DNA of 63,909 nt, filler included, from Stramenopiles sp. TOSAG23-6 (taxonomy: Eukaryota): assembly GCA_900128565.1 (NCBI GenBank). It is 26 parts of 26 records of this genome, joined end to end, with 100 filler letters (N's around TTAATTAATTAA, not from the genome) between each part and the next. Parts side by side here need not be neighbours in the genome. Positions count along the whole stretch, not along the records: positions 7,436 to 9,807 come from LT638084.1; 25 more parts are not named here. One strand, written 5' to 3'. The translations under genes and the position numbers were made by a program. Below the pieces are notes generated by a model. The model was not told the DNA's origin. It worked only from the letters and a program-made list of their open reading frames with translations, and did not search any database. Positions 5,441-63,909 of the stretch are shown piece by piece. Every line of letters starts with the position of its first letter. The first letter of the stretch is position 1.

Positions 5441-5747
5441 CCCTAACCCTAATAAATGTATAAAAAATGAATGAATATTTAAAAATTAGGGTTAGGAACT
5501 TGAATTTTTTTTTCAATTAAAAAGAATGATTTGATTTTGCAAGACATTTTTTTGTTTGATGATTTTTATAATAATTTTTATAATACAAATTAAATCAAAA
5601 ATTGATTTTCTTTTTGGAAGTCATTGACAACTGATTGTAAAGTTTGAATTACTGATGACTATCATGTTTATCATTTAATTTCTTTACGTCACTGTCCTCG
5701 TCCTCTAGGGTTAACGCTCCCGATGGTCGAATTGTCCTCAATGTTCT

Positions 5748-7846: not shown

Positions 7847-8494
7847 ATGGGACTTTCTATTGCAAAGCTGTGGGATTCGTGGGCTGGATTAGGTGGTTCA
7901 GAATGTGGTATCTTAATGGTTGGTCTTGACGCAGCTGGTAAGACGACCATCTTATATAAGTTAAAGTTGGGGGATGTGGTCTCGACCATTCCTACAATTG
8001 GTAAGTTTCTACATCAAACACTCTTTTTGTAAAAAGTAGTACATCAGTATGGTAACATTGCTAATATAAAGTATTATTTTATATTATATTTCCACATTAT
8101 AGGATTCAACGTAGAAACTGTTCAATACAGGAACATCAAATTTAATGTATGGGATGTCGGAGGACAAGATAAAATTCGACCACTTTGGCGTCACTACTAT
8201 AAGGGTGTCAGTGGTGTAATCTTTGTCGTTGACAGTAACGATGCAGCTCGTTTTCCTGAAGCAAAGAAAGAATTGGAGATAATGCTAAGTAAAGAAGAAT
8301 TACTCAAAGATGTGGTCGTATTGGTTTTTATAAACAAACAAGATTTACCCAAGGCGAAAAGTCCTCAAGATGTTGTCAGAGCATTGGGTCTAAATAAAAC
8401 ACGTCAAAAATGGTGGGCCCAAGCATGTTGTGCGACAACAGGTGATGGTTTATATGAAGGTTTAGATTGGTTATCGAATGAATTGAAAAATTGA
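7847..8494 (+). CDS. ARF: ADP-ribosylation factor family GTPase (exons 7847-8000, 8103-8494)
   Basis: MG start, [53 protein letters not shown]. Confidence 0.95.
8001..8102 (+). other. Canonical GT-AG spliceosomal intron, unrelated to the repeat family
   Basis: GTAAGT...GCTAAT...TTATAG; removal restores PTIGFNVE. Confidence 0.95.
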
Positions 8495-8877: not shown

Positions 8878-8982
8878 TTATCTTGCTTTCTTTCGTTGTC
8901 TATCGGATGGTGGTCGTACATCATGTATTGTGAAAAAAAAAATGGACATTTCAAAAAAATCGTTAGGTACAAAATTTCGTAC

Positions 8983-9032
<50 letters not shown>

Positions 9033-9751
9033 AAATTGGATGAAAACGTACATCGATTATTCCCAAAGCTCCAATACCTAAATCAGAGTCTTCTGAAGTA
9101 TAATCATCTTCTTCATCACTACTTGCATCATTTTCATACATTTCTTCTTTATTAAGAGATAAAATATCGACCATAACTTTTTGAGTTCGATTACCCTGAA
9201 AAAATGATGATGTATTTGTGACTTCTTCTATTTGCTTTTTTTGTCTCTCTTCTGATAAATCACGCCACAAGTATTGTGAAACAATATTTCAGAAATTTAA
9301 AATTCAAAACAAATCGTTAGGTACGAAATTTTCTCCAAAAAAAAAATAAAAAAATAAAAAAATAAAAAAAATAAAATAAATTAATAAATTCATGATGAAA
9401 ACGTACAACTTCTCACGAAGTATTTGTCTATCTGCTTTTGTCTTTAACAACCATTTTTTTAATCTTCTCGAATGATTCGGATCACTAGAGAGTTTTATAT
9501 ATTTTGGTTGTTCTTTCATCCATTTTGTTATTAATACATTTTTTGCATTACGTACATCATTTGCTTCATAATAACGAATTAATTTTCCATCTTTTGAAAT
9601 TTGTGAACCATCTCTCGTGACTACACAATAAGCATTTAAACGACTTCCTTTAGCATTATCAACCATCTGACACGCGGATTGCTTTGTGCTAGAGAGTATA
9701 ATACAAGGCTGTCCCAAACGACCACGTGAAAAGTCTTTTGCGATAGGATGA
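8878..9751 (-). CDS. Hypothetical protein, last three exons (9751-9407, 9268-9052, 8922-8878)
   Basis: Frames join on removing the family introns (REKL|WRDL; IID|DVRPP). Confidence 0.7.
8923..9051 (-). mobile_element. Introner-like GT-AT intron
   Basis: GAT|GTACGTTTT...TACGAAATTTTGTACCTAACG...CACAATACAT|GAT. Confidence 0.8.
9269..9406 (-). mobile_element. Introner-like GT-TT intron
   Basis: AAGTT|GTACGTTTT...TTTCGTACCTAACG...CACAATACTT|GTGG; removal joins ORFs 9304-9717 and 8878-9270 in frame. Confidence 0.8.
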
Positions 9752-12378: not shown

Positions 12379-12818
12379 CAAAAAATACAAAAAATACAAA
12401 AAATACAAAAAATACAAAAAATACAAAAAATACTAAAAATGTTGTTGAAACTCAAACAGAAAATACAAAAAAGACAAAAAAGATTGTTGAAACTCTCACA
12501 GAAGAAGAATTACAAAGTGTTACAGATTTGCGGCTACAAAATATTGTTGATATGTTACTGGAGAAAGAAGAGGCTCTTATGGAAAATCATAAAAACTTCA
12601 TGCAAGAAAATTCTACTTTTCTAATAGAGGAGGACGCCCTTTTGGCAAAGGTTAATGGTCAAGATGTCGAAGACTACGCCATTGATGAATATGTAGTTCG
12701 CCTTGATGAAATTCTGCAACGTCGTATGAAAATGTGCAAATCACTTCATGAACAATTACGAGACTTCCGTGAATCATTGGCTCAAGAGGAAGAAATAAAC
12801 GCAGGAAGTTTACAGTGA
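12379..12818 (+). CDS. Kinesin-13-like C-terminal coiled coil, 5'-truncated
   Basis: EEALMENH...EEDALL...IDEYVVRLDEIL...LRDFRESLAQEE resembles the kinesin-13 tail; preceded by a CAAAAAATA 9-mer repeat. Confidence 0.65.
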
Positions 12819-12964
12819 TACACAATGCGTGTTTAAAATGTATTTGTTGAAATTAATAAATACACATAAGTCTTACGGATTAATATATCATACACAACTT
12901 GTTTTTAAAAATGTTTAATGTATGATGGAAAATTCTATACGAGTTCACGCAAGGTATTTTCAAC

Positions 12965-13495
12965 TTATTTGAGTTCCATCCCCATAAACTTCATTTTATG
13001 GAATTGGAACCACCATTTATTTTGAGTTCCGTCATCACTGTAAAGTAAATCGAGAGTACGCGTAAGAATCTCCTTTCGCAATTGCGTCAAATAATTGCGT
13101 AATTTTTCTGCGTCTGAAGATTTGTCTGGTTTACTGCAGAGACTATGCAAAGGGTGTGAATTATCACTTGGGAGTTTTGAATTATCATGCATAATTTTCT
13201 GAACCTGCTTTTTCGCGTCAGTCCTTGTAGAATATGGTTTTAACTTTTTAATAATCATTTGAATAAGTAGAGTGCACTCAATGAGTAGCAAATCAGCGGG
13301 GTTTTTGACTTCAAAACTCTGAAAAAGGACGTTCGCACGGAAGTAGAAAAGAGCTTCGTCAATTATGTCGCGTTCGTCGGATTTGGCCTGCCCAGCTGGA
13401 CCTTTAAACTTCGTCTTTATAGGAAGTAACGGAAACTTGGCTATTAAAGGGAAATTGTCCACCTTATCGTTAAAGTGACTGTGGTATACCGGCAT
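12965..13495 (-). CDS. ARPC3: Arp2/3 complex subunit 3 (p21-Arc)
   Basis: MPVYHS, LLPIKTKFKGPA, DIIDEALFYFRANVLF, YLTQLRKE, NKWWFQF.KMKFM. Confidence 0.95.
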   Translation of the reverse strand: MPVYHSHFNDKVDNFPLIAKFPLLPIKTKFKGPAGQAKSDERDIIDEALFYFRANVLFQSFEVKNPADLLLIECTLLIQMIIKKLKPYSTRTDAKKQVQKIMHDNSKLPSDNSHPLHSLCSKPDKSSDAEKLRNYLTQLRKEILTRTLDLLYSDDGTQNKWWFQFHKMKFMGMELK

Positions 13496-13778
13496 GCTTA
13501 ATTGCGAAACAAAGGGATTTTAGAAAATAATATCTCTCCAACCTAGTAAAACTACAGATACTTGACAACAGAGAGATAACAGTGTCAAACGCGAAGTTGA
13601 CTTGAAGCCAGAAAAAAAAAAAGTTAAAAAGAAAACACGAAATATTTTTTTAAATTATTTTGATGGCTGGTCAAGTCAAGTCAAGTGGAGTCAACTCAAC
13701 TCTCTCACGACTTCGGAATCGGAAGAAGAAGAAGAAAGAATTTACAGTTTTTTTATACCCAAAATTAGTTAAATAGTA

Positions 13779-14447
13779 ATGACATCTGGAGCCCAACTAT
13801 TAATGGCAGCCACTGGTGGTGCTTGCGTTGCTGGTGGAGTTGCATTACTCTTACATCAGAAAAAAATGTTATCTGGGAAAACTAAAGTAGCCAAAACTAC
13901 AAAGGTGATATCAAGAATCGCCGTTGGTACAACAAATAAGTGTAAAGTCGGCGCAGTTATTAAAACCATACAAGAATATCCTCATATAAGCAATGCAGAA
14001 GTCGTTGCATTCAAAGCACCATCTGGAGTTTCTGAGCAGCCAATGGGCATAGAAACTACTGCACAAGGTGCACGAAACCGGGCAGAAGCAGCTTGGAATT
14101 TGTCTAAAAATTGTGACGTTGCGTTAGGTATTGAATCCGGCCTCTTTAAGTTGGATGATGGTAGTTATTATGATGTCTGTGTATGCTCTTCATTTGATGG
14201 CAATCGTCACCATCTTGGTATGAGTTGTGCATTTGAAGTTCCTAGTGCAATAATGAAGTTTGTCCAAGAAGACGATATGGATTTATCACAAGCTTGTAAT
14301 GCTTCCGGGATTACGTCTGATCCCCGATTAGGAGAACATGGTGGTTTAATTGCTATTTTGACGAATGACCGAGTGACCAGAGGTAAATATACAAACCAAG
14401 CCATTAGAATGGCACTTATTCATACGGAGAAATCACAATGGATGTAA
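13779..14447 (+). CDS. Non-canonical purine NTPase (YjjX-like) with N-terminal hydrophobic extension
   Basis: VGTTNKCKVGAV, SGVSEQPMG.E.T..GARNRA, GIESG, GGLIAILT..RVTR. Confidence 0.88.
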   Translation: MTSGAQLLMAATGGACVAGGVALLLHQKKMLSGKTKVAKTTKVISRIAVGTTNKCKVGAVIKTIQEYPHISNAEVVAFKAPSGVSEQPMGIETTAQGARNRAEAAWNLSKNCDVALGIESGLFKLDDGSYYDVCVCSSFDGNRHHLGMSCAFEVPSAIMKFVQEDDMDLSQACNASGITSDPRLGEHGGLIAILTNDRVTRGKYTNQAIRMALIHTEKSQWM

Positions 14448-14645
14448 AAAAATATAAAAAAAGGAAATATCTTTTGCATTTATTTTAATTTCTTAACGTT
14501 CAAATTTTAGAGTTCATTATTTCCTATTGAATTATCAGCAGTACCTTCTACCACAACATTTTCATCAAAAAATAAATCAAATGGCAGCCACTCTTTCGTT
14601 GGTATAGACCTTGGTCCAACTCCACGTTTCAGAGCAATACGATTC

Positions 14646-14747
14646 ATGTATTTTGGAAAAATATTTCAAAAAAAAAATCTAAAAAAAATGTTAGGTACAA
14701 AATTTCGTATGAAAAAAAAATCGAATTTGAAAAAAAATAAAACATAC
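14646..14747 (-). mobile_element. Introner-like GT-AT intron (copy at 17115-17216)
   Basis: GTATGTTTTATTTTTTTTCAAATTCGA...TACGAAATTTTGTACCTAAC...TTCCAAAATACAT; followed by a short terminal exon. Confidence 0.8.
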
Positions 14748-15433
14748 NNNNNNNNNNNNNNNNNNNNNNNNNNNNNNNNNNNNNNNNNNNNTTAATTAAT
14801 TAANNNNNNNNNNNNNNNNNNNNNNNNNNNNNNNNNNNNNNNNNNNNCAAAAAATACAAAAAATACAAAAAATACAAAAAATACAAAAAATACAAAAAAT
14901 ACTAAAAATGTTGTTGAAACTCAAACAGAAAATACAAAAAAGACAAAAAAGATTGTTGAAACTCTCACAGAAGAAGAATTACAAAGTGTTACAGATTTGC
15001 GGCTACAAAATATTGTTGATATGTTACTGGAGAAAGAAGAGGCTCTTATGGAAAATCATAAAAACTTCATGCAAGAAAATTCTACTTTTCTAATAGAGGA
15101 GGACGCCCTTTTGGCAAAGGTTAATGGTCAAGATGTCGAAGACTACGCCATTGATGAATATGTAGTTCGCCTTGATGAAATTCTGCAACGTCGTATGAAA
15201 ATGTGCAAATCACTTCATGAACAATTACGAGACTTCCGTGAATCATTGGCTCAAGAGGAAGAAATAAACGCAGGAAGTTTACAGTGATACACAATGCGTG
15301 TTTAAAATGTATTTGTTGAAATTAATAAATACACATAAGTCTTACGGATTAATATATCATACACAACTTGTTTTTAAAAATGTTTAATGTATGATGGAAA
15401 ATTCTATACGAGTTCACGCAAGGTATTTTCAAC

Positions 15434-15964
15434 TTATTTGAGTTCCATCCCCATAAACTTCATTTTATGGAATTGGAACCACCATTTATTTTGAGTTCCG
15501 TCATCACTGTAAAGTAAATCGAGAGTACGCGTAAGAATCTCCTTTCGCAATTGCGTCAAATAATTGCGTAATTTTTCTGCGTCTGAAGATTTGTCTGGTT
15601 TACTGCAGAGACTATGCAAAGGGTGTGAATTATCACTTGGGAGTTTTGAATTATCATGCATAATTTTCTGAACCTGCTTTTTCGCGTCAGTCCTTGTAGA
15701 ATATGGTTTTAACTTTTTAATAATCATTTGAATAAGTAGAGTGCACTCAATGAGTAGCAAATCAGCGGGGTTTTTGACTTCAAAACTCTGAAAAAGGACG
15801 TTCGCACGGAAGTAGAAAAGAGCTTCGTCAATTATGTCGCGTTCGTCGGATTTGGCCTGCCCAGCTGGACCTTTAAACTTCGTCTTTATAGGAAGTAACG
15901 GAAACTTGGCTATTAAAGGGAAATTGTCCACCTTATCGTTAAAGTGACTGTGGTATACCGGCAT
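15434..15964 (-). CDS. ARPC3: ARPC3 (duplicate contig)
   Basis: Identical to 12965-13495. Confidence 0.9.
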   Translation of the reverse strand: MPVYHSHFNDKVDNFPLIAKFPLLPIKTKFKGPAGQAKSDERDIIDEALFYFRANVLFQSFEVKNPADLLLIECTLLIQMIIKKLKPYSTRTDAKKQVQKIMHDNSKLPSDNSHPLHSLCSKPDKSSDAEKLRNYLTQLRKEILTRTLDLLYSDDGTQNKWWFQFHKMKFMGMELK

Positions 15965-16247
15965 GCTTAATTGCGAAACAAAGGGATTTTAGAAAATAAT
16001 ATCTCTCCAACCTAGTAAAACTACAGATACTTGACAACAGAGAGATAACAGTGTCAAACGCGAAGTTGACTTGAAGCCAGAAAAAAAAAAAGTTAAAAAG
16101 AAAACACGAAATATTTTTTTAAATTATTTTGATGGCTGGTCAAGTCAAGTCAAGTGGAGTCAACTCAACTCTCTCACGACTTCGGAATCGGAAGAAGAAG
16201 AAGAAAGAATTTACAGTTTTTTTATACCCAAAATTAGTTAAATAGTA

Positions 16248-16916
16248 ATGACATCTGGAGCCCAACTATTAATGGCAGCCACTGGTGGTGCTTGCGTTGC
16301 TGGTGGAGTTGCATTACTCTTACATCAGAAAAAAATGTTATCTGGGAAAACTAAAGTAGCCAAAACTACAAAGGTGATATCAAGAATCGCCGTTGGTACA
16401 ACAAATAAGTGTAAAGTCGGCGCAGTTATTAAAACCATACAAGAATATCCTCATATAAGCAATGCAGAAGTCGTTGCATTCAAAGCACCATCTGGAGTTT
16501 CTGAGCAGCCAATGGGCATAGAAACTACTGCACAAGGTGCACGAAACCGGGCAGAAGCAGCTTGGAATTTGTCTAAAAATTGTGACGTTGCGTTAGGTAT
16601 TGAATCCGGCCTCTTTAAGTTGGATGATGGTAGTTATTATGATGTCTGTGTATGCTCTTCATTTGATGGCAATCGTCACCATCTTGGTATGAGTTGTGCA
16701 TTTGAAGTTCCTAGTGCAATAATGAAGTTTGTCCAAGAAGACGATATGGATTTATCACAAGCTTGTAATGCTTCCGGGATTACGTCTGATCCCCGATTAG
16801 GAGAACATGGTGGTTTAATTGCTATTTTGACGAATGACCGAGTGACCAGAGGTAAATATACAAACCAAGCCATTAGAATGGCACTTATTCATACGGAGAA
16901 ATCACAATGGATGTAA
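16248..16916 (+). CDS. YjjX-like NTPase (duplicate contig)
   Basis: Identical to 13779-14447. Confidence 0.85.
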   Translation: MTSGAQLLMAATGGACVAGGVALLLHQKKMLSGKTKVAKTTKVISRIAVGTTNKCKVGAVIKTIQEYPHISNAEVVAFKAPSGVSEQPMGIETTAQGARNRAEAAWNLSKNCDVALGIESGLFKLDDGSYYDVCVCSSFDGNRHHLGMSCAFEVPSAIMKFVQEDDMDLSQACNASGITSDPRLGEHGGLIAILTNDRVTRGKYTNQAIRMALIHTEKSQWM

Positions 16917-17316
16917 AAAAATATAAAAAAAGGAAATATCTTTTGCATTTATTTTAATTTCTTAACGTTCAAATTTTAGAGTTCATTATTTCCTATTGAA
17001 TTATCAGCAGTACCTTCTACCACAACATTTTCATCAAAAAATAAATCAAATGGCAGCCACTCTTTCGTTGGTATAGACCTTGGTCCAACTCCACGTTTCA
17101 GAGCAATACGATTCATGTATTTTGGAAAAATATTTCAAAAAAAAAATCTAAAAAAAATGTTAGGTACAAAATTTCGTATGAAAAAAAAATCGAATTTGAA
17201 AAAAAATAAAACATACNNNNNNNNNNNNNNNNNNNNNNNNNNNNNNNNNNNNNNNNNNNNTTAATTAATTAANNNNNNNNNNNNNNNNNNNNNNNNNNNN
17301 NNNNNNNNNNNNNNNN

Positions 17317-37196: not shown

Positions 37197-37536
37197 ATAA
37201 GTCATACAAGATCCGTCAGGTCTTTGAACCAATTTTTTGTTATTTCCCTCTTCAGGACACGATGGATACCATGTATTTTGGAAAAATATTCTACAATTAA
37301 ATTCGTTAGGTACAAAATTTCGTATGAAAAATAAATTCATAGTTTAAAAAAAAAATATAAAACAAACATGGAGCTTTATCTGTTCCAGTACCTGTTTTTA
37401 TCATTGTAATATGCACTTTACCTGAATCGTATAAAAATATTTCAAAAATGTTAAATGGATTAGGATTTTAAAAAAAAAAAAAAAAAAAATTTTACAAAAA
37501 AAAAAAAAAAAATTTTTTTAAAAAAAAAAAAAAAAA

Positions 37537-37572
<36 letters not shown>

Positions 37573-38976
37573 TTTTTTTTTTTTTTTTTTGTTTTGTAAA
37601 TATGAAATGTACAAAAAAAAATTCAAAACATTTNAAAAAAAAAAAAAATTGGGGTTAGGGTTTTCGAGTGTAGGGTTAGGGTTAAAAAAAACGTACCACG
37701 ATTGTAACTCTTTTGCAGCATCAACTGTTGGTGCAAATATTAAGTTTGTTGATGCATAGGTTCCAATAGTTCTTCCCCCATACTCACTTAATTTACATCC
37801 TTTTAAAGCCACTACAGGATGGTTTTCAAATTGACTATCATCAATACTAGCTTTATTGCCCCATAGCGTAACACGAACTGAAGATTTCGAAGAATCAACA
37901 AGAATAAGGTCTCTCTTCATCAACTCTTTACCTGACTTCGTAGTCAGTGTTGAAGACGCAGTGTGACTATGTATCACACCAAGAACATCAATGGTTGAGT
38001 TTGCCTCTTTTTCTTCCAATTTATCAATTTGAATGAAATTAAAATGCATTGCTTGAATCGAATTATCATCCTCACATTGACAAATAATTGTGTTTGCAGC
38101 AAAAGTAATTTCATAATAATTTTTAATTGAGGTGTAAGACGTATTTGCGACTTTGACTTTACCTTTTGAAAATGTGTACACAGATCCTTCATGGAGTTCA
38201 TCATAAAATTTATCTACCGCGTCGTTAAAAAACGTAGCACGCACTTCGGTACCTTGATCATCAAGTAAATTCGTGGAAAATAACTTTCCCTGTCCACGAG
38301 CGTTCGTCCATTCTTTTAATTCACCTTTACATGTGACACGAGCACGAATGGTCCATCGGTTATTGTAAGGATTAAGTGCTTTAATAGGGATTTCCTTACC
38401 TGGAGGTCCTGCGCTACGGGGGAGAGAACAGGGTGTTTTCCGGGATGGAGGAGGATTTGGAGTCGCTAATTGCTTATTCGACTCATTTTTGAGTTTTGGT
38501 GTAGCAGGTACTTCTTTTTCATCATGATCTTTGAGATTATCTTCATTGTTTTCCTCGTTGTTGTTGTTGTTGACAACTGGATCAGCAGAGTTATCATTCT
38601 GGTTCTCAGATTGTTCTTCCATTTTGACCTTTTCCATTTTTTCTTCCATTTTGACCTCGACTGAGTCTTTTACAACCTCAAGTCCAGCAAGAATCAATAT
38701 TTTATTATCACCTATCACTTTCGCCTTGTATTCAGTGAGTTTTATATACGACGATTTCTTTGCTTTTTCATCCACAAGGTCACTGAGACTACCAGCTACA
38801 GCACCAACCATTTCGGTCTCCCCGTCAGAGAGTGTCAATTTAAATCGACCAGCATCCGTTTTTGTACGCTTCTTTACCTGAAGTACAAGTTCCTCAGAAC
38901 AATCAAATTCTTCTGTCTTTAAAACACGGGTTAAAGAACCCGTAGACAAACAAACGTTATTCTCCTCATCTGACAT
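37197..38976 (-). CDS. RPA1: RPA1 (duplicate contig)
   Basis: Same as 34734-36513. Confidence 0.88.
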
Positions 38977-39659
38977 TATCTTTACACACCTTTTTGAAAT
39001 TGATATCAAACGTTTACTAAGGAGAGAGACGAAAACCAAAACCTATCAATGTTATCGAGACATTCGAGAGAGAGATGAGCATTTTTTTGGTAGTCACACA
39101 TCATTCAAAAAAAGAAAAATTCACGCGCGCAAAAAATTGGAACAAACATGTTATAATTTTATTTTTTTTATTATTATTCACCTGGAGTATACACAAAAAA
39201 AACTTTACTACAAAACTACACTATATAATGGTGTATCATCCTATCACTTGAACATAACGAAATCATTATTTTTATAATCACTTTTATAATTTAGAAGCAT
39301 TACACAAGCCCAACGCAAACAATCCTTACGATTCTTAGGGTTCTTACTAGTAGGGTTAGGGCTATCCTTAAGAATATTCAATATTTGACAATTCAATATT
39401 TGTCANNNNNNNNNNNNNNNNNNNNNNNNNNNNNNNNNNNNNNNNNNNNTTAATTAATTAANNNNNNNNNNNNNNNNNNNNNNNNNNNNNNNNNNNNNNN
39501 NNNNNGAAATTGGTCAAAATCAAGAAATACAAATTTTCATATTTTCACAAAAAAAAAAAAATATATAGCCTAAAAAAAAAAAAAAAAAAAAAAAAAATTT
39601 ATTAAGGAAAAAAATTTTTTCCAAAAAAAAAAAAAAAAAAAAAAAAAAAGATTGAATAC

Positions 39660-39999
39660 ATAAGTCATACAAGATCCGTCAGGTCTTTGAACCAATTTTT
39701 TGTTATTTCCCTCTTCAGGACACGATGGATACCATGTATTTTGGAAAAATATTCTACAATTAAATTCGTTAGGTACAAAATTTCGTATGAAAAATAAATT
39801 CATAGTTTAAAAAAAAAATATAAAACAAACATGGAGCTTTATCTGTTCCAGTACCTGTTTTTATCATTGTAATATGCACTTTACCTGAATCGTATAAAAA
39901 TATTTCAAAAATGTTAAATGGATTAGGATTTTAAAAAAAAAAAAAAAAAAAATTTTACAAAAAAAAAAAAAAAAATTTTTTTAAAAAAAAAAAAAAAAA

Positions 40000-40035
<36 letters not shown>

Positions 40036-41439
40036 TTTTTTTTTTTTTTTTTTGTTTTGTAAATATGAAATGTACAAAAAAAAATTCAAAACATTTNAAA
40101 AAAAAAAAAAATTGGGGTTAGGGTTTTCGAGTGTAGGGTTAGGGTTAAAAAAAACGTACCACGATTGTAACTCTTTTGCAGCATCAACTGTTGGTGCAAA
40201 TATTAAGTTTGTTGATGCATAGGTTCCAATAGTTCTTCCCCCATACTCACTTAATTTACATCCTTTTAAAGCCACTACAGGATGGTTTTCAAATTGACTA
40301 TCATCAATACTAGCTTTATTGCCCCATAGCGTAACACGAACTGAAGATTTCGAAGAATCAACAAGAATAAGGTCTCTCTTCATCAACTCTTTACCTGACT
40401 TCGTAGTCAGTGTTGAAGACGCAGTGTGACTATGTATCACACCAAGAACATCAATGGTTGAGTTTGCCTCTTTTTCTTCCAATTTATCAATTTGAATGAA
40501 ATTAAAATGCATTGCTTGAATCGAATTATCATCCTCACATTGACAAATAATTGTGTTTGCAGCAAAAGTAATTTCATAATAATTTTTAATTGAGGTGTAA
40601 GACGTATTTGCGACTTTGACTTTACCTTTTGAAAATGTGTACACAGATCCTTCATGGAGTTCATCATAAAATTTATCTACCGCGTCGTTAAAAAACGTAG
40701 CACGCACTTCGGTACCTTGATCATCAAGTAAATTCGTGGAAAATAACTTTCCCTGTCCACGAGCGTTCGTCCATTCTTTTAATTCACCTTTACATGTGAC
40801 ACGAGCACGAATGGTCCATCGGTTATTGTAAGGATTAAGTGCTTTAATAGGGATTTCCTTACCTGGAGGTCCTGCGCTACGGGGGAGAGAACAGGGTGTT
40901 TTCCGGGATGGAGGAGGATTTGGAGTCGCTAATTGCTTATTCGACTCATTTTTGAGTTTTGGTGTAGCAGGTACTTCTTTTTCATCATGATCTTTGAGAT
41001 TATCTTCATTGTTTTCCTCGTTGTTGTTGTTGTTGACAACTGGATCAGCAGAGTTATCATTCTGGTTCTCAGATTGTTCTTCCATTTTGACCTTTTCCAT
41101 TTTTTCTTCCATTTTGACCTCGACTGAGTCTTTTACAACCTCAAGTCCAGCAAGAATCAATATTTTATTATCACCTATCACTTTCGCCTTGTATTCAGTG
41201 AGTTTTATATACGACGATTTCTTTGCTTTTTCATCCACAAGGTCACTGAGACTACCAGCTACAGCACCAACCATTTCGGTCTCCCCGTCAGAGAGTGTCA
41301 ATTTAAATCGACCAGCATCCGTTTTTGTACGCTTCTTTACCTGAAGTACAAGTTCCTCAGAACAATCAAATTCTTCTGTCTTTAAAACACGGGTTAAAGA
41401 ACCCGTAGACAAACAAACGTTATTCTCCTCATCTGACAT
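39660..41439 (-). CDS. RPA1: RPA1 (triplicate contig)
   Basis: Same as 34734-36513. Confidence 0.88.
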
Positions 41440-41968
41440 TATCTTTACACACCTTTTTGAAATTGATATCAAACGTTTACTAAGGAGAGAGACGAAAACC
41501 AAAACCTATCAATGTTATCGAGACATTCGAGAGAGAGATGAGCATTTTTTTGGTAGTCACACATCATTCAAAAAAAGAAAAATTCACGCGCGCAAAAAAT
41601 TGGAACAAACATGTTATAATTTTATTTTTTTTATTATTATTCACCTGGAGTATACACAAAAAAAACTTTACTACAAAACTACACTATATAATGGTGTATC
41701 ATCCTATCACTTGAACATAACGAAATCATTATTTTTATAATCACTTTTATAATTTAGAAGCATTACACAAGCCCAACGCAAACAATCCTTACGATTCTTA
41801 GGGTTCTTACTAGTAGGGTTAGGGCTATCCTTAAGAATATTCAATATTTGACAATTCAATATTTGTCANNNNNNNNNNNNNNNNNNNNNNNNNNNNNNNN
41901 NNNNNNNNNNNNTTAATTAATTAANNNNNNNNNNNNNNNNNNNNNNNNNNNNNNNNNNNNNNNNNNNN

Positions 41969-47993: not shown

Positions 47994-48091
47994 AAATATT
48001 GTGAAAAAATATTTTTGGTCAAAAAAATCGTGAGGTACAAAATGTTACATGAAAATAAATGTAGGTAAAAAATTCAATTTTGGAAACATAC
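47994..48091 (-). mobile_element. Introner-like GT-TT intron
   Basis: CTT|GTATGTTT...TTTTGTACCTCACG...CACAATATTT|GTATGC. Confidence 0.7.
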
Positions 48092-49461: not shown

Positions 49462-51628
49462 ATGATGAAGCAAGAGAAAAGGACAAATAGGGACAAGGAA
49501 AAGCAAATACTCGTCAGTAACACGAACAACAATTTACACTTTGATGGTTCGTCAACACTCGATAATAAAGACGCAACCATACACAAATCTTCAACATCTA
49601 GAATAGCCGTGGAAGATTCACTTTTGGCAAGACATAAAATAAAACAATCTAGACTTGAAAAGCTTCGACAAGAAAAAGAAAACGCTGAACTAAATCTCTG
49701 TCAACCTCAACCAAAACTAAACAAAAAATCACTTCAAATAGTGGCAAAACGAAATCGAAAAAGTATTGTAGAGCGTAGCCAGTCTTTTATAGAGAAGCGT
49801 CAACGAAATAGAGATTCAATGAAGCATGCACAACAACTGAAAGAGTTATCACAACTAAAAAGTGCACCAACAATAAATAAGAAATCACAGAAATTAGCTG
49901 GTAAAAGAGGATTAGAATCTCAAAAAATATGGCTTTTGAAACGTGATGAAAAAGTTCGCCAAAAAAAACAAATGCTTCAACACAAAGAAGAAAAGAAATG
50001 TGAAAAACCGGAACTCATGAATAAGCACTCTAAACATTTGGTACAAAAAATGCGTAGTCAAAGTAATCAAGACTATCAGTCAGAAGACGTTGCTGAGAGA
50101 TTGATGAAAAAAGGTCAAGAATATGAAATAAAACGTCAAAAAAAAGAAAAAGAGGAGGAAAATCGTGAAAAATGAAATTCATATCCTCGAATAGATGTAC
50201 GTTCAGCTCGATATCAGAGACCTAATCGTGAAGTGCCTATTATTCAAACTAATAATACTACCGAAGCTGATGTCGAGACACCAACAAATCTTGGGATACG
50301 TATGTATGTTTTATTTTTTTTCAAATTCGAATTTATTTTTTTCGTACGAAATTTTGTACCTAACGATTTTTTTTGAAATATTTTTCCTATATGGAAGCAA
50401 AGAAGAAAGATCAGGAAAATAAATTTCGGAGGGAAATCGAAAAGAACACAAAAAGCAATTTATCTCCGTCGGGTAATCAACTGTATAAACCAACAATAAA
50501 TACAAATTCTAGAAAATTAGCCATTGCACAACAAAAAAAACTTTTTCGTTCGATGTTGAATGAAAAAGTAAATATTCAACATTCATTAGGTACAAAAGTT
50601 AGTACGGATTCAATATCGGAGGTTTCAGAACAATCACAAATATTCAGAAAAAATGGTTCAAATCATACAACAAATAGTACCAACTTGGAAGCACCACATA
50701 CTCACTATTTTGGAAAAAATGGCCACCTAAAAGATGTCACAAATGTATGTTTTATTTTTTTTTCAAATTCGAAGTTTTTTTTCGTACGAAATTTTGTACC
50801 TAACGAATTGTTTTTTCAAATATTTTTCCAAAATACATAATGTACATCGATCAAATACTTCATTTCATTTTGAGGTACCTAAAAGAGAGGTACCCAAAAG
50901 AATCAATACATCAATCATCACAGAATATGGAGTAGTACCACCACCAATATCTTTTACGATGCATTCATCCAATAATGACCATTCAAAAACATCAAAAAGT
51001 TTTCTTTATAATCAACTTAAAGAGAGATTGAATCGTCGTGATTATAATGATTATATAGATGATTTTTCAAGTGTAAAGATTTCAGTCGAGGATCGTTTAG
51101 CTGCAAAGGGAAGCGAATATAAAAAAAGGCGAGAAATGCGTATAAAAAATAAAGTACAACATCAAATTGAGTTACAACATCGAACTATTAAATCTAGACA
51201 AAACATAGTGGAGCCTAATTATACAGATCTTAATAAATCAAAGAAAATAATAATAAATAATAATGGGTCAAATGCTTTAGATACTACCGTAAATGATGAA
51301 ATATTGATGAGCTCATTGTCTCGATTGACTCGACCCATTGGTCATATAAAATCAAATACATTAAAAACTATAAAGATTCCATCATTTTCACCTGAATTAA
51401 ATAAAAGATCAATTAAAATTTGTCAAAATCGAAATTCAGAAAATATAAAGAAAAAACACGAATTTAATTGTATGCATAATAATGATGAGAAACAAATCAA
51501 AAAGAAAAAAAATGGACATAAAAATCTGACGACTTTTGATAAACAACAAAAATGGCTTGAACAAAAAAAAAAAAATACTCTAAAACTGAGACATCAAAGG
51601 GATGCGAAAGTGTATGCAGAATGTACAT
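49462..51628 (+). CDS. Basic coiled-coil protein with P.IN..S repeats (introns 50304-50392, 50745-50838, 51629-); in-frame TGA at 50173
   Basis: QPKLNKKS, APTINKKS, YPRIDVRS, KPTINTNS, SPELNKRS lie in one spliced frame. Confidence 0.7.
50304..50392 (+). mobile_element. Introner-like GT-AT intron
   Basis: AT|GTATGTTTTATTTTTTTTCAAATTCGA...CGTACGAAATTTTGTACCTAACG...TTCCTATAT|GGAA. Confidence 0.75.
50745..50838 (+). mobile_element. Introner-like GT-AT intron (near-consensus copy)
   Basis: AAT|GTATGTTTT...CGTACGAAATTTTGTACCTAACG...TTCCAAAATACAT|AAT; joins ORFs 50373 and 50734 in frame. Confidence 0.88.
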
Positions 51629-59119: not shown

Positions 59120-59172
59120 TACAAAATTTCGTATGAAAAAAAAATTGGAATTTGAAAAAAAATAAAACATAC
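59120..59172 (-). mobile_element. Introner-like intron, 5' half (copy 61565-61617)
   Basis: AAT|GTATGTTTTATTTTTTTTCAAATTCC...CATACGAAATTTTGTA. Confidence 0.8.
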
Positions 59173-59670
59173 ATTTGCTGCCTGAAACAGTGGATCCGCA
59201 TCTTCTAAACCTGCTCTTATCCATTGATCAATTGCTTCTGCAGTACATTTTTCTGGGACGTCTAATAATGATATTATGGAAGCACCCTTAAAATTTACAT
59301 CCATTTGAGCATCCTGTTCAGAATATTTTTCTGGTTTCATGAAAATGGAGTATAAAACAGGTTCCTTTATACATTTTGTTGCCCATTCATGTGGAAAGAG
59401 TATGGTCCCATTGGGATCTTGGATATAATAACTTCGACATTCAAATATAGAGTCGATATTTTTTTGTAGCAATCGCGTTCGAGGAACCCTTTTGATTGTT
59501 TCTGGTTTGTCATGTACACCTATTCGTATCAAGTGCATTGCAGCTGGATTATTCTTTTGTGGATCTTTTACGACTTCTTCCTTTCGGTTGAATTCAGGTT
59601 TTTTAAATTCAGGCATTTTTTCTGGTGGAGAGGGTGGGGGTTTATAGTCCATCCCCTTTGGAGCTGCCAT
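59173..59670 (-). CDS. Hypothetical protein, first exon
   Basis: Open frame from ATG 59670 to the family intron. Confidence 0.65.
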
Positions 59671-60068
59671 TTTAAAAGAATGTAAACAATTTAAGTTTCT
59701 GTGACCTTTGAGTGTAGTACCTATATGTAGAATGCTATTCTTTACAAAATGAAAAAGAACACGGACGTTGAAATATTTAACGGAAAGAAACTGTCACTTT
59801 ACTACTACTCAGTATAAATACTTTTTAATTACTACGTAGTAGCGTCCTAACTGTGGTAGTAGTCCATATTACCGCATGCATCTACTACATATTCAATAGC
59901 TCATATTTTGATAATGCAATATTCTTAAAGAGACATGACGTTTTTTGTTTGCATTGGTGCTTGTTCATTACTTGATTAAGACGAAGACGAAACATCAGCC
60001 CTGTTTTATGCAATAGTTTACAATTTTATAATTTTGTGTTGAAGCAAAAGGCTAAAATAAACAGTCAA

Positions 60069-61384
60069 ATGAGTTACAGGAAAAAAGATAAAAATAATCA
60101 AACACAAACTATTTTGACAAAAAAATACACAGTTGGTCACAGAAATCCTTCCAGAACTCGAACATATCGACCTGCCAGTGCGCCACTTAGACGATTCAAT
60201 CCTCAGTCACCTAAAAGAATACAAAAAGATGCTCGAAGCATACACAAAGATGCTCGAAACATAAGTACAAATAGTCAGTCGCCACGTACACATACACGCA
60301 ATCGCCCACCAAGACTACTCAAAGGCAATACAAATAGCAGAGTTGCGTGGGCATCATCAAACTTTGGTGCAAGAAAATGGAGAGCTTTGAAGGGAAATAG
60401 TAGATTTAGTTTTGTAAAAAATGTTCGCAGTCAGTGCTTTCGCCAAAGAGACGGGTTGAAAAATTTCAAAAACAAACCAGCTACAAAACAAATAGTACAA
60501 CAGAAGAAATTAGTTGATACATTTGATAACATTTCTCCATCTGCGTCAGGTATTTCGGATCACTCTGTAGATTTTATGAATTTTGGTGTACAGAGTACTC
60601 ACCTAACCCCTAACCCTAGAGCGATAGATAAAGATTCATACAATCGTACTCATATACCAGCGAATAGAAAACCGATATTAGTTGTTAAAAATCCCTTGGA
60701 AAATATTTCCACCAAAATCAACGACCCAAAAAAGACAATAAATTCCGTGAAATATAGTCATAGTACTCATTGCATTAGTACTGAAAATTCGAATGAGACA
60801 AAAACCGCTATTGTAGCTCCACCACATTTAATTACAAATGATAACATATGTAGTTTCATGGATAAAAAAATAGATAATACACAAATCATCATGCCTTCAA
60901 AATCAAACTATATACAACATCAACTAAAGCAAAACGAGGTTCAAGAAAATGTAAAACGTCAAATACAAATACGTCAATCAATAGAAGAAAACAATTTATT
61001 GTGTCAATCAAGCACAAAATATGAAAAACAAGAAAAGAAACGAGTAATTATAAAAAATACCCATAAAATACGTATAAAAAAGCAACAACGAGAAAAAGAA
61101 TTGGCAAGTCTACGCGCAATTATTCAACCATTATCATCATCAAAACCGTTTACTGGTACTGGATCTTTGCATTTTTATAAATTGGGAAAAGTACTTGGTC
61201 AAGGTTCATTCGGGTGTGTACGCCTTGCATCCCATAGACTTACAGGTACTAAAGTTGCAATAAAAACATATGATCGAGATCAATTTCAAAATTGTTCAGT
61301 GCAAGCTTGGGCACAAGTTCAACGCGAGTTCCGCCAAGAAGCTGCCATTCTATCGACTATAAAACATCGAAGTATCGCAAGATT
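60069..61384 (+). CDS. CAMK-group (MARK/SNF1-like) Ser/Thr kinase with long basic N-terminus, first exon
   Basis: YKLGKVLGQGSFGCVRLA.H.LTG.KVAIK, EAAIL..IKH..I.RL. Confidence 0.85.
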
Positions 61385-61464
61385 ATATGTTTTATATGAA
61401 TTTCTAATTTAATTTTTTTTTCATACGAAATTTCGTACCTAACGAATTTTTTTTTGAAATATTT
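61385..61464 (+). mobile_element. Introner-like intron beginning AT instead of GT, truncated (copy 63830-63909)
   Basis: AGATT|ATATGTTTTATATGAATTTCTAATTT...TACGAAATTTCGTACCTAACG; otherwise matches the copy at 56522. Confidence 0.78.
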
Positions 61465-61564: not shown

Positions 61565-63909
61565 TACAAAATTTCGTATGAAAAAAAAATTGGAATTTGA
61601 AAAAAAATAAAACATACATTTGCTGCCTGAAACAGTGGATCCGCATCTTCTAAACCTGCTCTTATCCATTGATCAATTGCTTCTGCAGTACATTTTTCTG
61701 GGACGTCTAATAATGATATTATGGAAGCACCCTTAAAATTTACATCCATTTGAGCATCCTGTTCAGAATATTTTTCTGGTTTCATGAAAATGGAGTATAA
61801 AACAGGTTCCTTTATACATTTTGTTGCCCATTCATGTGGAAAGAGTATGGTCCCATTGGGATCTTGGATATAATAACTTCGACATTCAAATATAGAGTCG
61901 ATATTTTTTTGTAGCAATCGCGTTCGAGGAACCCTTTTGATTGTTTCTGGTTTGTCATGTACACCTATTCGTATCAAGTGCATTGCAGCTGGATTATTCT
62001 TTTGTGGATCTTTTACGACTTCTTCCTTTCGGTTGAATTCAGGTTTTTTAAATTCAGGCATTTTTTCTGGTGGAGAGGGTGGGGGTTTATAGTCCATCCC
62101 CTTTGGAGCTGCCATTTTAAAAGAATGTAAACAATTTAAGTTTCTGTGACCTTTGAGTGTAGTACCTATATGTAGAATGCTATTCTTTACAAAATGAAAA
62201 AGAACACGGACGTTGAAATATTTAACGGAAAGAAACTGTCACTTTACTACTACTCAGTATAAATACTTTTTAATTACTACGTAGTAGCGTCCTAACTGTG
62301 GTAGTAGTCCATATTACCGCATGCATCTACTACATATTCAATAGCTCATATTTTGATAATGCAATATTCTTAAAGAGACATGACGTTTTTTGTTTGCATT
62401 GGTGCTTGTTCATTACTTGATTAAGACGAAGACGAAACATCAGCCCTGTTTTATGCAATAGTTTACAATTTTATAATTTTGTGTTGAAGCAAAAGGCTAA
62501 AATAAACAGTCAAATGAGTTACAGGAAAAAAGATAAAAATAATCAAACACAAACTATTTTGACAAAAAAATACACAGTTGGTCACAGAAATCCTTCCAGA
62601 ACTCGAACATATCGACCTGCCAGTGCGCCACTTAGACGATTCAATCCTCAGTCACCTAAAAGAATACAAAAAGATGCTCGAAGCATACACAAAGATGCTC
62701 GAAACATAAGTACAAATAGTCAGTCGCCACGTACACATACACGCAATCGCCCACCAAGACTACTCAAAGGCAATACAAATAGCAGAGTTGCGTGGGCATC
62801 ATCAAACTTTGGTGCAAGAAAATGGAGAGCTTTGAAGGGAAATAGTAGATTTAGTTTTGTAAAAAATGTTCGCAGTCAGTGCTTTCGCCAAAGAGACGGG
62901 TTGAAAAATTTCAAAAACAAACCAGCTACAAAACAAATAGTACAACAGAAGAAATTAGTTGATACATTTGATAACATTTCTCCATCTGCGTCAGGTATTT
63001 CGGATCACTCTGTAGATTTTATGAATTTTGGTGTACAGAGTACTCACCTAACCCCTAACCCTAGAGCGATAGATAAAGATTCATACAATCGTACTCATAT
63101 ACCAGCGAATAGAAAACCGATATTAGTTGTTAAAAATCCCTTGGAAAATATTTCCACCAAAATCAACGACCCAAAAAAGACAATAAATTCCGTGAAATAT
63201 AGTCATAGTACTCATTGCATTAGTACTGAAAATTCGAATGAGACAAAAACCGCTATTGTAGCTCCACCACATTTAATTACAAATGATAACATATGTAGTT
63301 TCATGGATAAAAAAATAGATAATACACAAATCATCATGCCTTCAAAATCAAACTATATACAACATCAACTAAAGCAAAACGAGGTTCAAGAAAATGTAAA
63401 ACGTCAAATACAAATACGTCAATCAATAGAAGAAAACAATTTATTGTGTCAATCAAGCACAAAATATGAAAAACAAGAAAAGAAACGAGTAATTATAAAA
63501 AATACCCATAAAATACGTATAAAAAAGCAACAACGAGAAAAAGAATTGGCAAGTCTACGCGCAATTATTCAACCATTATCATCATCAAAACCGTTTACTG
63601 GTACTGGATCTTTGCATTTTTATAAATTGGGAAAAGTACTTGGTCAAGGTTCATTCGGGTGTGTACGCCTTGCATCCCATAGACTTACAGGTACTAAAGT
63701 TGCAATAAAAACATATGATCGAGATCAATTTCAAAATTGTTCAGTGCAAGCTTGGGCACAAGTTCAACGCGAGTTCCGCCAAGAAGCTGCCATTCTATCG
63801 ACTATAAAACATCGAAGTATCGCAAGATTATATGTTTTATATGAATTTCTAATTTAATTTTTTTTTCATACGAAATTTCGTACCTAACGAATTTTTTTTT
63901 GAAATATTT
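61565..63909. repeat. Duplicate of contig 59120-61464
   Basis: Same sequence and ORFs, offset 2445. Confidence 0.97.

Follow-up and report, generated by a model that had tools for sequence, protein, structure and literature searches.

On the minus strand of one of the contigs analysed, an open reading frame is interrupted by an intron-like stretch (Table 1): the exon ending in ...GAGAAGTT is followed by an intron reading GTACGTTTTC...GAAAATTTCGTACCTAAC...TTCACAATAC+TT (in a longer reading its start is GTACGTTTTCATC, directly after ...GAGAAGTT) and then by an exon beginning with GTGGCG.... When the element and two further bases are taken out, ...REKL joins WRDLSEERQ..., with 120-codon open runs on either side. 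A second copy of the same kind of intron lies in the same gene. Since an Arf-family gene of the same contig contains an ordinary GT-AG intron, the organism has canonical introns too.

The window, i.e., the whole stretch of DNA that was analysed (63,909 bases), consists of 26 contigs of ~2.35 kb each, which are ordered by length and do not form one locus. The contigs are separated by spacers of the N44-TTAATTAATTAA-N44 form (e.g., 2380-2479), and, because the window was produced by joining separate contigs, adjoining ones are not genomic neighbours. Four contigs are exact duplicates (Table 1), the unique set comprising 22 contigs and 51,969 bases. The GC content of the window is ~24-39%. Its ORFs encode ordinary eukaryotic proteins (Arf, ARPC3, RPA70, GAS8, YIF1, photolyase and kinases), its DNA was found again in seawater metagenomes and metatranscriptomes, and an Rfam scan of the window gave 0 matches.

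Two further repeats were observed in the window. The telomere-like motif CCCTAACCCTA was counted 16 times, with 0.01 occurrences expected (positions 5441, 7695, 33353, 35208, 36888, 42434, 42673, 43454, 44276, 44309 and 60608, plus duplicates), being located within introns and just 5' of genes, e.g., ~150 bases ahead of the Arf start codon; it may represent a second interspersed or regulatory motif. A tandem repeat with a 9-base, AAAATACAA-like unit is present in 6 units at 12382-12433 (plus strand; duplicate at 14851-14902), where the ORF reads KNTKNT..., and it raises the count of the AAAATAC motif in the window.

Table 1. Coordinates of contigs and introns in the window (pairs such as TT/TT give the exon-end and intron-end dinucleotides; carets mark exon-intron junctions).
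Feature	Position	Strand	Details
Identical contigs	12379-14747 = 14848-17216		
Identical contigs	34580-36942 = 37043-39405 = 39506-41868		
Identical contigs	59120-61464 = 61565-63909		
Ordinary GT-AG intron, Arf-family gene, same contig as flagged copy	8001..8102	+	GTAAGT...TATAG; Arf Pfam matches in both exons
Flagged intron copy	9269..9406	-	Element 9271-9406 (136 nt) plus terminal TT 9269-9270; 138 nt removed
Donor motif GTACGTTTT, 5' end of flagged copy	9398..9406	-	GTAYGTTTT family motif
Internal module GAAAATTTCGTACCTAAC of flagged copy	9316..9333	-	Near-palindromic around GTAC; branch-point-like CCTAAC at 9316-9321
3' terminal motif TTCACAATAC of flagged copy	9271..9280	-	Conserved in the family
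Intron-end TT of flagged copy	9269..9270	-	Copy of the exon-end TT
Exon-end TT	9407..9408	-	Directly upstream of the GT of the flagged copy
Second copy, same gene as flagged copy	8923..9051	-	AT^GTACG...CACAATAC AT^G
TT/TT copy, protein-kinase gene	23820..23942	-	Removed in RNA
AT/AT copy	22726..22822	-	Removed in RNA
AT/AT copy	22478..22578	-	Removed in RNA
TT/TT copy	24288..24393	-	Used in exon-end/intron-end comparison
TT/TT copy	47994..48091	-	7-base junction repeat TT^GTATG
Mismatched copy AC^GT...AT^	31382..31494	+	Element+2 still needed; frames open for 120 codons on each side
Mismatched copy TC^GT...AT^	23482..23576	-	25 nt downstream of copy 23602-23699 (AG end)

The intron family and the curated set of copies

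Introns similar in sequence to the flagged one occur in unrelated genes (a kinase gene, an RPA gene and several genes without Pfam match), and 27 non-redundant complete copies along with partial ones were counted for the 52 kb of unique sequence, 26 of the complete copies coming from the window and one from a metagenome locus (L001). The latter was the one locus returned when public collections were searched with a 22-base pattern of the branch module; the same pattern had 0 matches in the genome_contigs and viral_contigs collections. The copies share the architecture GTAYGTTTT ... CGTACGAAATTTYGTACCTAAC ... CA[C/A]AATAC followed by two bases, and as ~100-base introns they are densely distributed over the window: GTAYGTTTT occurs 33 times in it against 2.3 expected, and the internal module AAATTTYGTACCTAA is found in 42 places, duplicate contigs and a few loose matches outside the family being counted. 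All 27 copies start with G, which is followed by T in 26 of them; the last eight bases of the element (positions -8 to -1) are conserved in 22-27 of the 27 copies, with the exception of position -6 (C 16, A 8, T 3). Element length ranges from 87 to 168 nt, the differences being mostly due to a poly-T tract, the length of which varies greatly among copies (in copy 8923-9051 the tract reaches ~50 bases, 8981-9030 on the minus strand). Copies of the family are broken by 15 of the 44 unique contig ends. Breaks of this kind are what assemblers produce at very abundant repeats, and they fit a very high genome-wide copy number.

In the curated set (n = 27), the 5' end of each copy was taken as the G of the donor-like motif and the 3' end as the last base of the conserved ...AATAC, as determined by a consensus-based caller; the 3' ends of five copies were assigned by hand. 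Exact duplicate contigs were left out, as were copies truncated by contig ends (by hand tally, 9 donor-motif starts without a 3' end and 8 copies with the 3' end alone or without an upstream exon) and three donor-motif starts (33408, 11290 and 40159) whose body is degenerate or of another kind. Tandem GTATGTATG starts occur in two copies. For the one at 50304, the second GT was chosen on the basis of a downstream ORF of 158 aa; for the one at 33635, either start gives AT. For copy 34197, an alternative start 6 bases upstream would turn TT/AT into AT/AT, and the copy was scored as a mismatch. No family copy outside a gene or in antisense orientation was clearly seen in the window. When flanks of 75 nt were compared, those read in sense proved open in 25 of 25 cases upstream and 25 of 27 downstream, and those read in antisense in 17 of 25 and 20 of 27, respectively, so that this test is not discriminating.

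Several variants were observed beside the regular copies. A donor variant with A as the first base, ATATGTTTT, is located at 61385 (plus strand; duplicate at 63830), its 3' end being lost to the contig end; another donor variant, GCACGTTTT, is found at 23050 (minus strand) and is accompanied by the 6-base junction repeat AT^GCAC. Directly past the end of copy 34197-34347 lies GTATGCTACAATAC (34348-34361, plus strand), which resembles the 5' end of the element fused to its 3' end and is possibly a remnant of an internally deleted element; GTATGC also follows copy 48091. The donor GTACGTTTTTTTT at 40159 (minus strand; duplicates at 37696 and 35233) is followed by a long T/A-rich stretch with CCCTAA repeats and without the family module, which is possibly a longer, different intron of the RPA70 gene.

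Removal of the element and two bases from RNA

Direct information on the removal of these introns comes from contigs of two RNA runs, which cover 3 of the 27 copies. In run X6, a contig (record 15) joins 23818 to 23942, skipping 123 nt, and the junction restores ...RKL^GQGSFG. In the polyA RNA run X8, record 26 joins 22724 to 22822 with 97 nt skipped, and record 25 stops at 22481 with a 12-letter loose end identical to 22583-22594, which therefore corresponds to 101 nt skipped. Each of these skipped stretches (123, 97 and 101 nt) is 2 nt longer than the respective element (121, 95 and 99 nt), and the position of the cut at these copies is ambiguous only inside the repeated bases. The same length is demanded by reading frames: among the copies with decisive flanking open runs, 14 of 16 require element+2 (mod 3). 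One of the two exceptions, 23576, needs +1, and there the upstream 'frame' passes through the neighbouring intron, the exon being only 25 nt long; the other, 9051, prefers, or at least allows, +0 (element+2 gives a basic C-terminal tail of 14 codons, and element+0 an open run of 47 codons). In a cruder test, the junction frames were open in 20-21 of 25 copies at offsets equal to 2 mod 3 versus 9-12 of 25 at other offsets. Since RNA skips element+2 and the frames require element+2, the removal is scarless, and the original prediction that the element is lost together with one dinucleotide was borne out. In the kinase gene, a 25-base micro-exon (23577-23601, minus strand) was observed between an AG-ending copy (23602-23699) and an AT-ending one (23482-23576); the frame in this region works only if both flanking copies are removed separately.

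Short variable direct repeats at both junctions, one copy of which is kept, resemble the pointers that flank internal eliminated sequences of ciliates, and the elements might accordingly be excised from DNA rather than from RNA. We regard this as scarcely credible at all, because contigs of a DNA metagenome (X3) retain the elements and the polyA RNA contigs are without them, and because donor and branch signals are present in the copies. The X3 contigs cross boundaries of 2 of the 3 copies skipped in RNA (records 1 and 8, record 1 crossing the 3' boundary of copy 22726-22822), and record 7 crosses other copies. One contig of an RNA library (X7, record 17) runs into an intron and may represent pre-mRNA or DNA. 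The DNA joints that were listed link different repeat copies and are uninformative on intron-free alleles, and no empty site, presence/absence allele or autonomous element was seen in the material analysed.

In 22 of 24 copies, a distance of 29-55 nt separates the branch-like CCTAAC from the cut, and in 8 of 24 copies at least one AG between the branch site and the cut is passed over; therefore, the cut would appear to follow the end motif of the element and not the first AG. We tentatively propose, as a possibility of less than even weight, that the 3' cut is set by the element end CA[C/A]AATAC, two bases on, and not by a search for AG, so that the element would be scarlessly spliceable from its insertion onwards.

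The U12-type introns have a ATATCCTT-like donor and a branch site near the 3' end. If the boundaries of the introns studied were shifted by two bases to the left, they would become AT...AC introns of U12-type or of U2-type, and all 15 AT/AT copies can indeed be cut as ^ATGTAY...ATAC^ with the same product. Nevertheless, such a shift is impossible in 6 copies, which are devoid of the left-hand junction repeat, and two more copies share one base only; the four TT copies would have to read TT...AC. Furthermore, the 5' end is not a ATATCCTT donor, the family donor being GTAYGTTTT, the branch motif lies at the above distance from the cut, and no minor-spliceosome RNA was found in the window, which is a small sample of the genome. 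Taken together, these observations make the AT...AC boundaries hardly credible.

Pairing of exon ends with intron ends and the origin of the family

The dinucleotides preceding the 27 introns are AT (17), TT (6), TC (2), CA (1) and AC (1), and those terminating them are AT (20), TT (4) and AG (3). The exon/intron pairs are AT/AT 15, TT/TT 4, TC/AT 2, TT/AT 2, AC/AT 1, AT/AG 2 and CA/AG 1. Both dinucleotides match in 19 of 27 copies versus 13.5 expected (200,000 permutations, p = 0.0015), the per-base match rates being 22/27 at position -2 and 21/27 at position -1. Thus, a direct repeat at both junctions is present in 19 of 27 copies, which is a repeat and not yet a duplication event. Because AT dominates at both ends, the pairing signal rests mainly on the four TT copies, which represent independent sites, since their flanks are unrelated. 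TT introns occur only after TT exons (4/2/0/21, one-sided Fisher test, p = 0.00085), and each of the four copies for which this had been claimed (9269, 23820, 24288 and 47994) was checked and does follow an exon ending with TT. It had also been claimed that 15 of 20 AT-ending copies follow AT; we found 14 of 19 in the non-redundant window and 15 of 20 when L001 is included (16 of 21 with the two exact duplicate contigs of copy 39830 counted as well). The longer junction repeats reported earlier, CAT^G, TT^GT and AT^GCAC, are all present. TT ends as a trait of a subfamily were considered and rejected: TT was found in 5 of 20 CAC-type versus 0 of 13 CCAAAATAC-type ends (by hand tally), and the match with the exon would stay unexplained anyway.

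Mismatched copies are informative as to the nature of the repeat. They number 8 of 27, and both bases differ in three of them (TC/AT twice and CA/AG). Wherever a mismatched intron ends with AT (five copies), the deviating side is the exon, an asymmetry from which AT itself would seem to be selected as a 3' signal. No AA or TA intron end occurs among the 27 copies, and the intron end may accordingly be under selection for [A/T]T or AG. The mismatched copies are also farther from the family consensus than the matched ones (mean 6.5 versus 3.7 differences at 43 conserved sites, one-sided Mann-Whitney test, p = 0.021, with the reservation that one of the 8 mismatched copies contains Ns, inflating its divergence), and this greater divergence fits the decay of a target-site duplication. 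According to our own arithmetic, the mean divergence of 10.6% per site predicts ~64% intact 2+2-base repeats, and 70% were observed.

The same data should be weighed against the assumption that no duplication ever occurred and that the splicing machinery has two independent preferences for AT (sometimes TT), one concerning the last exon bases upstream of GTAYGT and the other the last intron bases, with the matches arising through shared composition or co-selection. The AT majority at both sites, the exon-only variation in the five AT-ending mismatches and the conservation of the last 8 element bases, which is as strong as that of the donor and fits a splicing signal, speak in favour of such a preference. 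However, it would leave unaccounted for the appearance of intron TT after exon TT in 4 of 4 cases and in 0 of 21 after other ends, at sites with unrelated flanks, as well as the concentration of mismatches in the more diverged copies. We know of no spliceosomal contact for which the last bases of exon and intron have to be identical. Considering these facts, an independent preference seems to us unlikely, and the original prediction that the variable 3' dinucleotide is the duplicated target stands as far as its tracking of the exon end and the decay pattern are concerned; the duplication event itself we consider moderately probable.

The sequence context of the dinucleotides points to a symmetric target. 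Of the 27 copies, 10 have C at position -3 (p = 0.0057 at a background of 0.157) and 19 have G after the dinucleotide (p = 5.5e-7 at a background of 0.242), the restored site being the palindromic C-AT-G. The G after the cut could reflect a splicing preference or be the third base of a 3-bp duplication, which in these sequences looks the same as a 2-bp one combined with a preference for G. If 3 bp were duplicated, an element of the same kind would double [A/T]TG, the donor G would be derived from the upstream duplicate, and the element proper would start with TAYG. The frequency of G as the first exon base after the intron is indeed near the match rates at -2 and -1, and a 3-bp duplication is described for Micromonas introners (PMC11282704). 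Against this stands the symmetry of the termini, which is lost with 3 bp (TAYG... vs. ...ATAC), whereas 2 bp gives GTA[Y]...[R]TAC and the palindromic C-AT-G; moreover, the downstream G is absent in 8 copies. For these reasons we believe a 3-bp duplication to be quite unlikely.

The termini of the elements were compared with the inverted repeat GTAT(G)TTTT/AAAATAC, from which, along with the target duplication, a MITE-like origin had been deduced earlier. The consensus termini are GTAT...ATAC, symmetric in the GTA[Y]...[R]TAC form. A perfect inverted repeat of at least 4 bases is present in 11 of 27 copies and one of 3 bases in 8 of 27, and inverted repeats of at least 4 bases arise in 0.7% of trials with random window segments. 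With a bulge allowed, the inverted termini match in at most 8 of 9 positions, and this in 2 copies only; across copies, no covariation was detected between position 4 of the 5' end (C or T) and position -4 of the 3' end. The longer inverted repeat was confirmed in the AAAATAC-ending subfamily only: the flagged copy itself starts with GTAC and ends with CACAATAC, the inverted part being GTA/TAC alone. In MITEs, the terminal inverted repeats are expected to be at least ~10 bases long, and with inverted termini of 3-4 bases, free of covariation, the label of a MITE is not earned by this family. The terminal conservation could serve splicing, transposition or both. Folding of the RNA of 8 copies gave weak structures (z between +0.5 and -4.2): of the 8 minimum-energy folds, 3 contain a 4-bp helix of the ends and 4 a small central hairpin, with no other consistent structure. 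Termini of the Transib, Tc1/mariner (TA) and Helitron (A^T) types were rejected as models, since the conserved GTA...TAC is enclosed by the repeat and since TT/TT pairs are at odds with them.

No transposase domain was recognized among the 58 ORFs scanned, which were chosen from the 100 window ORFs of at least 85 aa. Along with the very short inverted termini and the complete set of donor and branch signals within the element, this is consistent with a spread via RNA, i.e., reverse splicing into transcripts, reverse transcription and recombination, without any duplication, AT before GT being a preferred proto-splice site. Reverse splicing would, however, carry a fixed intron end, and the occurrence of TT only after TT exons would not be explained by it, which makes this route very unlikely in our opinion.

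On this evidence, it is moderately probable that the flagged stretch is a copy of a non-autonomous, introner-like mobile DNA element, whose 2-bp target duplication supplies a non-AG 3' end. We infer the following course of events. The element would insert into coding DNA at [A/T]T, presumably preferring the C-AT-G context, and integration would double the two target bases. Three signals would arrive with the element: the donor GTAYGTTTT, beginning at base 1, the putative branch site CCTAAC in the interior, and the conserved 3' end CA[C/A]AATAC. The splicing machinery would then cut two bases past the 3' end of the element, after the duplicated dinucleotide, so that the intron would end with AT or TT and not with AG. 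RNA would thereby lose the element with one copy of the duplication and regain the original reading frame.

Comparison with known systems

The family touches on two open questions, the origin of new introns and the strictness with which the spliceosome needs a 3' AG, and it can be regarded as a compact natural experiment, in which a classical donor and branch site are combined with an acceptor that appears to be a duplicated dinucleotide (AT in most copies, TT in a few). Should a duplication indeed lie behind the repeat, no AG has to be borrowed for a transposon to turn into a scarless intron, and standard gene finders would mis-annotate most genes of such organisms. If the cut is indeed defined by position, the family would be a natural example of an AG-independent acceptor that works together with a GT donor and a branch site of the classical kind. 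No description of a GT...AT/TT introner family was found in the literature searched. Introner elements of Micromonas pusilla and Aureococcus anophagefferens were reportedly described by Huff, Zilberman and Roy in 2016; possibly relevant are also non-canonical introns in marine single-cell genomes, which are said to have been treated by Gawryluk et al. in 2016.

The 3' splice site is formed by the duplication both in Micromonas introners, where the duplication supplies AG, and in the MITE-derived introns of Fritillaria (PMC11282704), and non-canonical intron ends originating from transposon duplication are described for Fritillaria, Amoebophrya and possibly euglenozoans (PMC11282704, PMC7789003, PMC12621601). 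The curation of introners in PMC12130899 accepts AG or AC acceptors only, and GT...AT introns would therefore be foreign to it.

Like the introners of M. pusilla and A. anophagefferens, the family includes many near-identical non-coding introns of ~100 bases in unrelated genes, with short direct repeats at the junctions, the element giving the donor and the duplication, as we suppose for the family, the last bases (PMC11282704). Those introners have AG ends, duplications of 3 bp or longer and clearer inverted termini (PMC11282704), whereas in the family described here AG terminates 3 of 27 copies only, in place of the canonical GT/GC...AG ends of introners, the repeat comprises 2 bp (AT or TT), and only 3-4 bases of the termini are inverted. 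The MITE-derived introns of Fritillaria borealis are similar in that duplicated exon bases become a non-AG end, despite which they are spliced efficiently (Henriet et al., 2019, via PMC11282704). They are mostly AG...AC or AG...AT, i.e., non-canonical at the 5' end too, and belong to many families (PMC11282704), in contrast to the classical GTAYGT donor, the CTAAC branch site and the one dominant family observed by us.

In Amoebophrya, likewise a marine protist, the introns are repeated ones, with direct repeats across the exon-intron boundaries and with non-AG ends (Farhat et al., 2021; PMC7789003). The Amoebophrya introns carry direct repeats of 3-5 nt and inverted repeats of 8-20 nt forming hairpins, their dinucleotides are highly variable, and U1 was undetected (PMC7789003); the copies studied here begin almost invariably with GT and are without a strong hairpin. 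Nonconventional introns of euglenids and hemistasiid diplonemids, for which a MITE origin has been proposed, resemble the family in the ambiguity of the cut caused by junction repeats (PMC11282704, PMC12621601). They are described as being without GT and having strong pairing of their ends, with circles released in Euglena (PMC11282704, PMC12621601), whereas our family has donor and branch signals and weak end pairing, and thus does not belong among the nonconventional introns. The principle that transposon duplication forms the last bases of an intron is already known from some of these systems, and the GT...AT/TT ends would be a further form of it.
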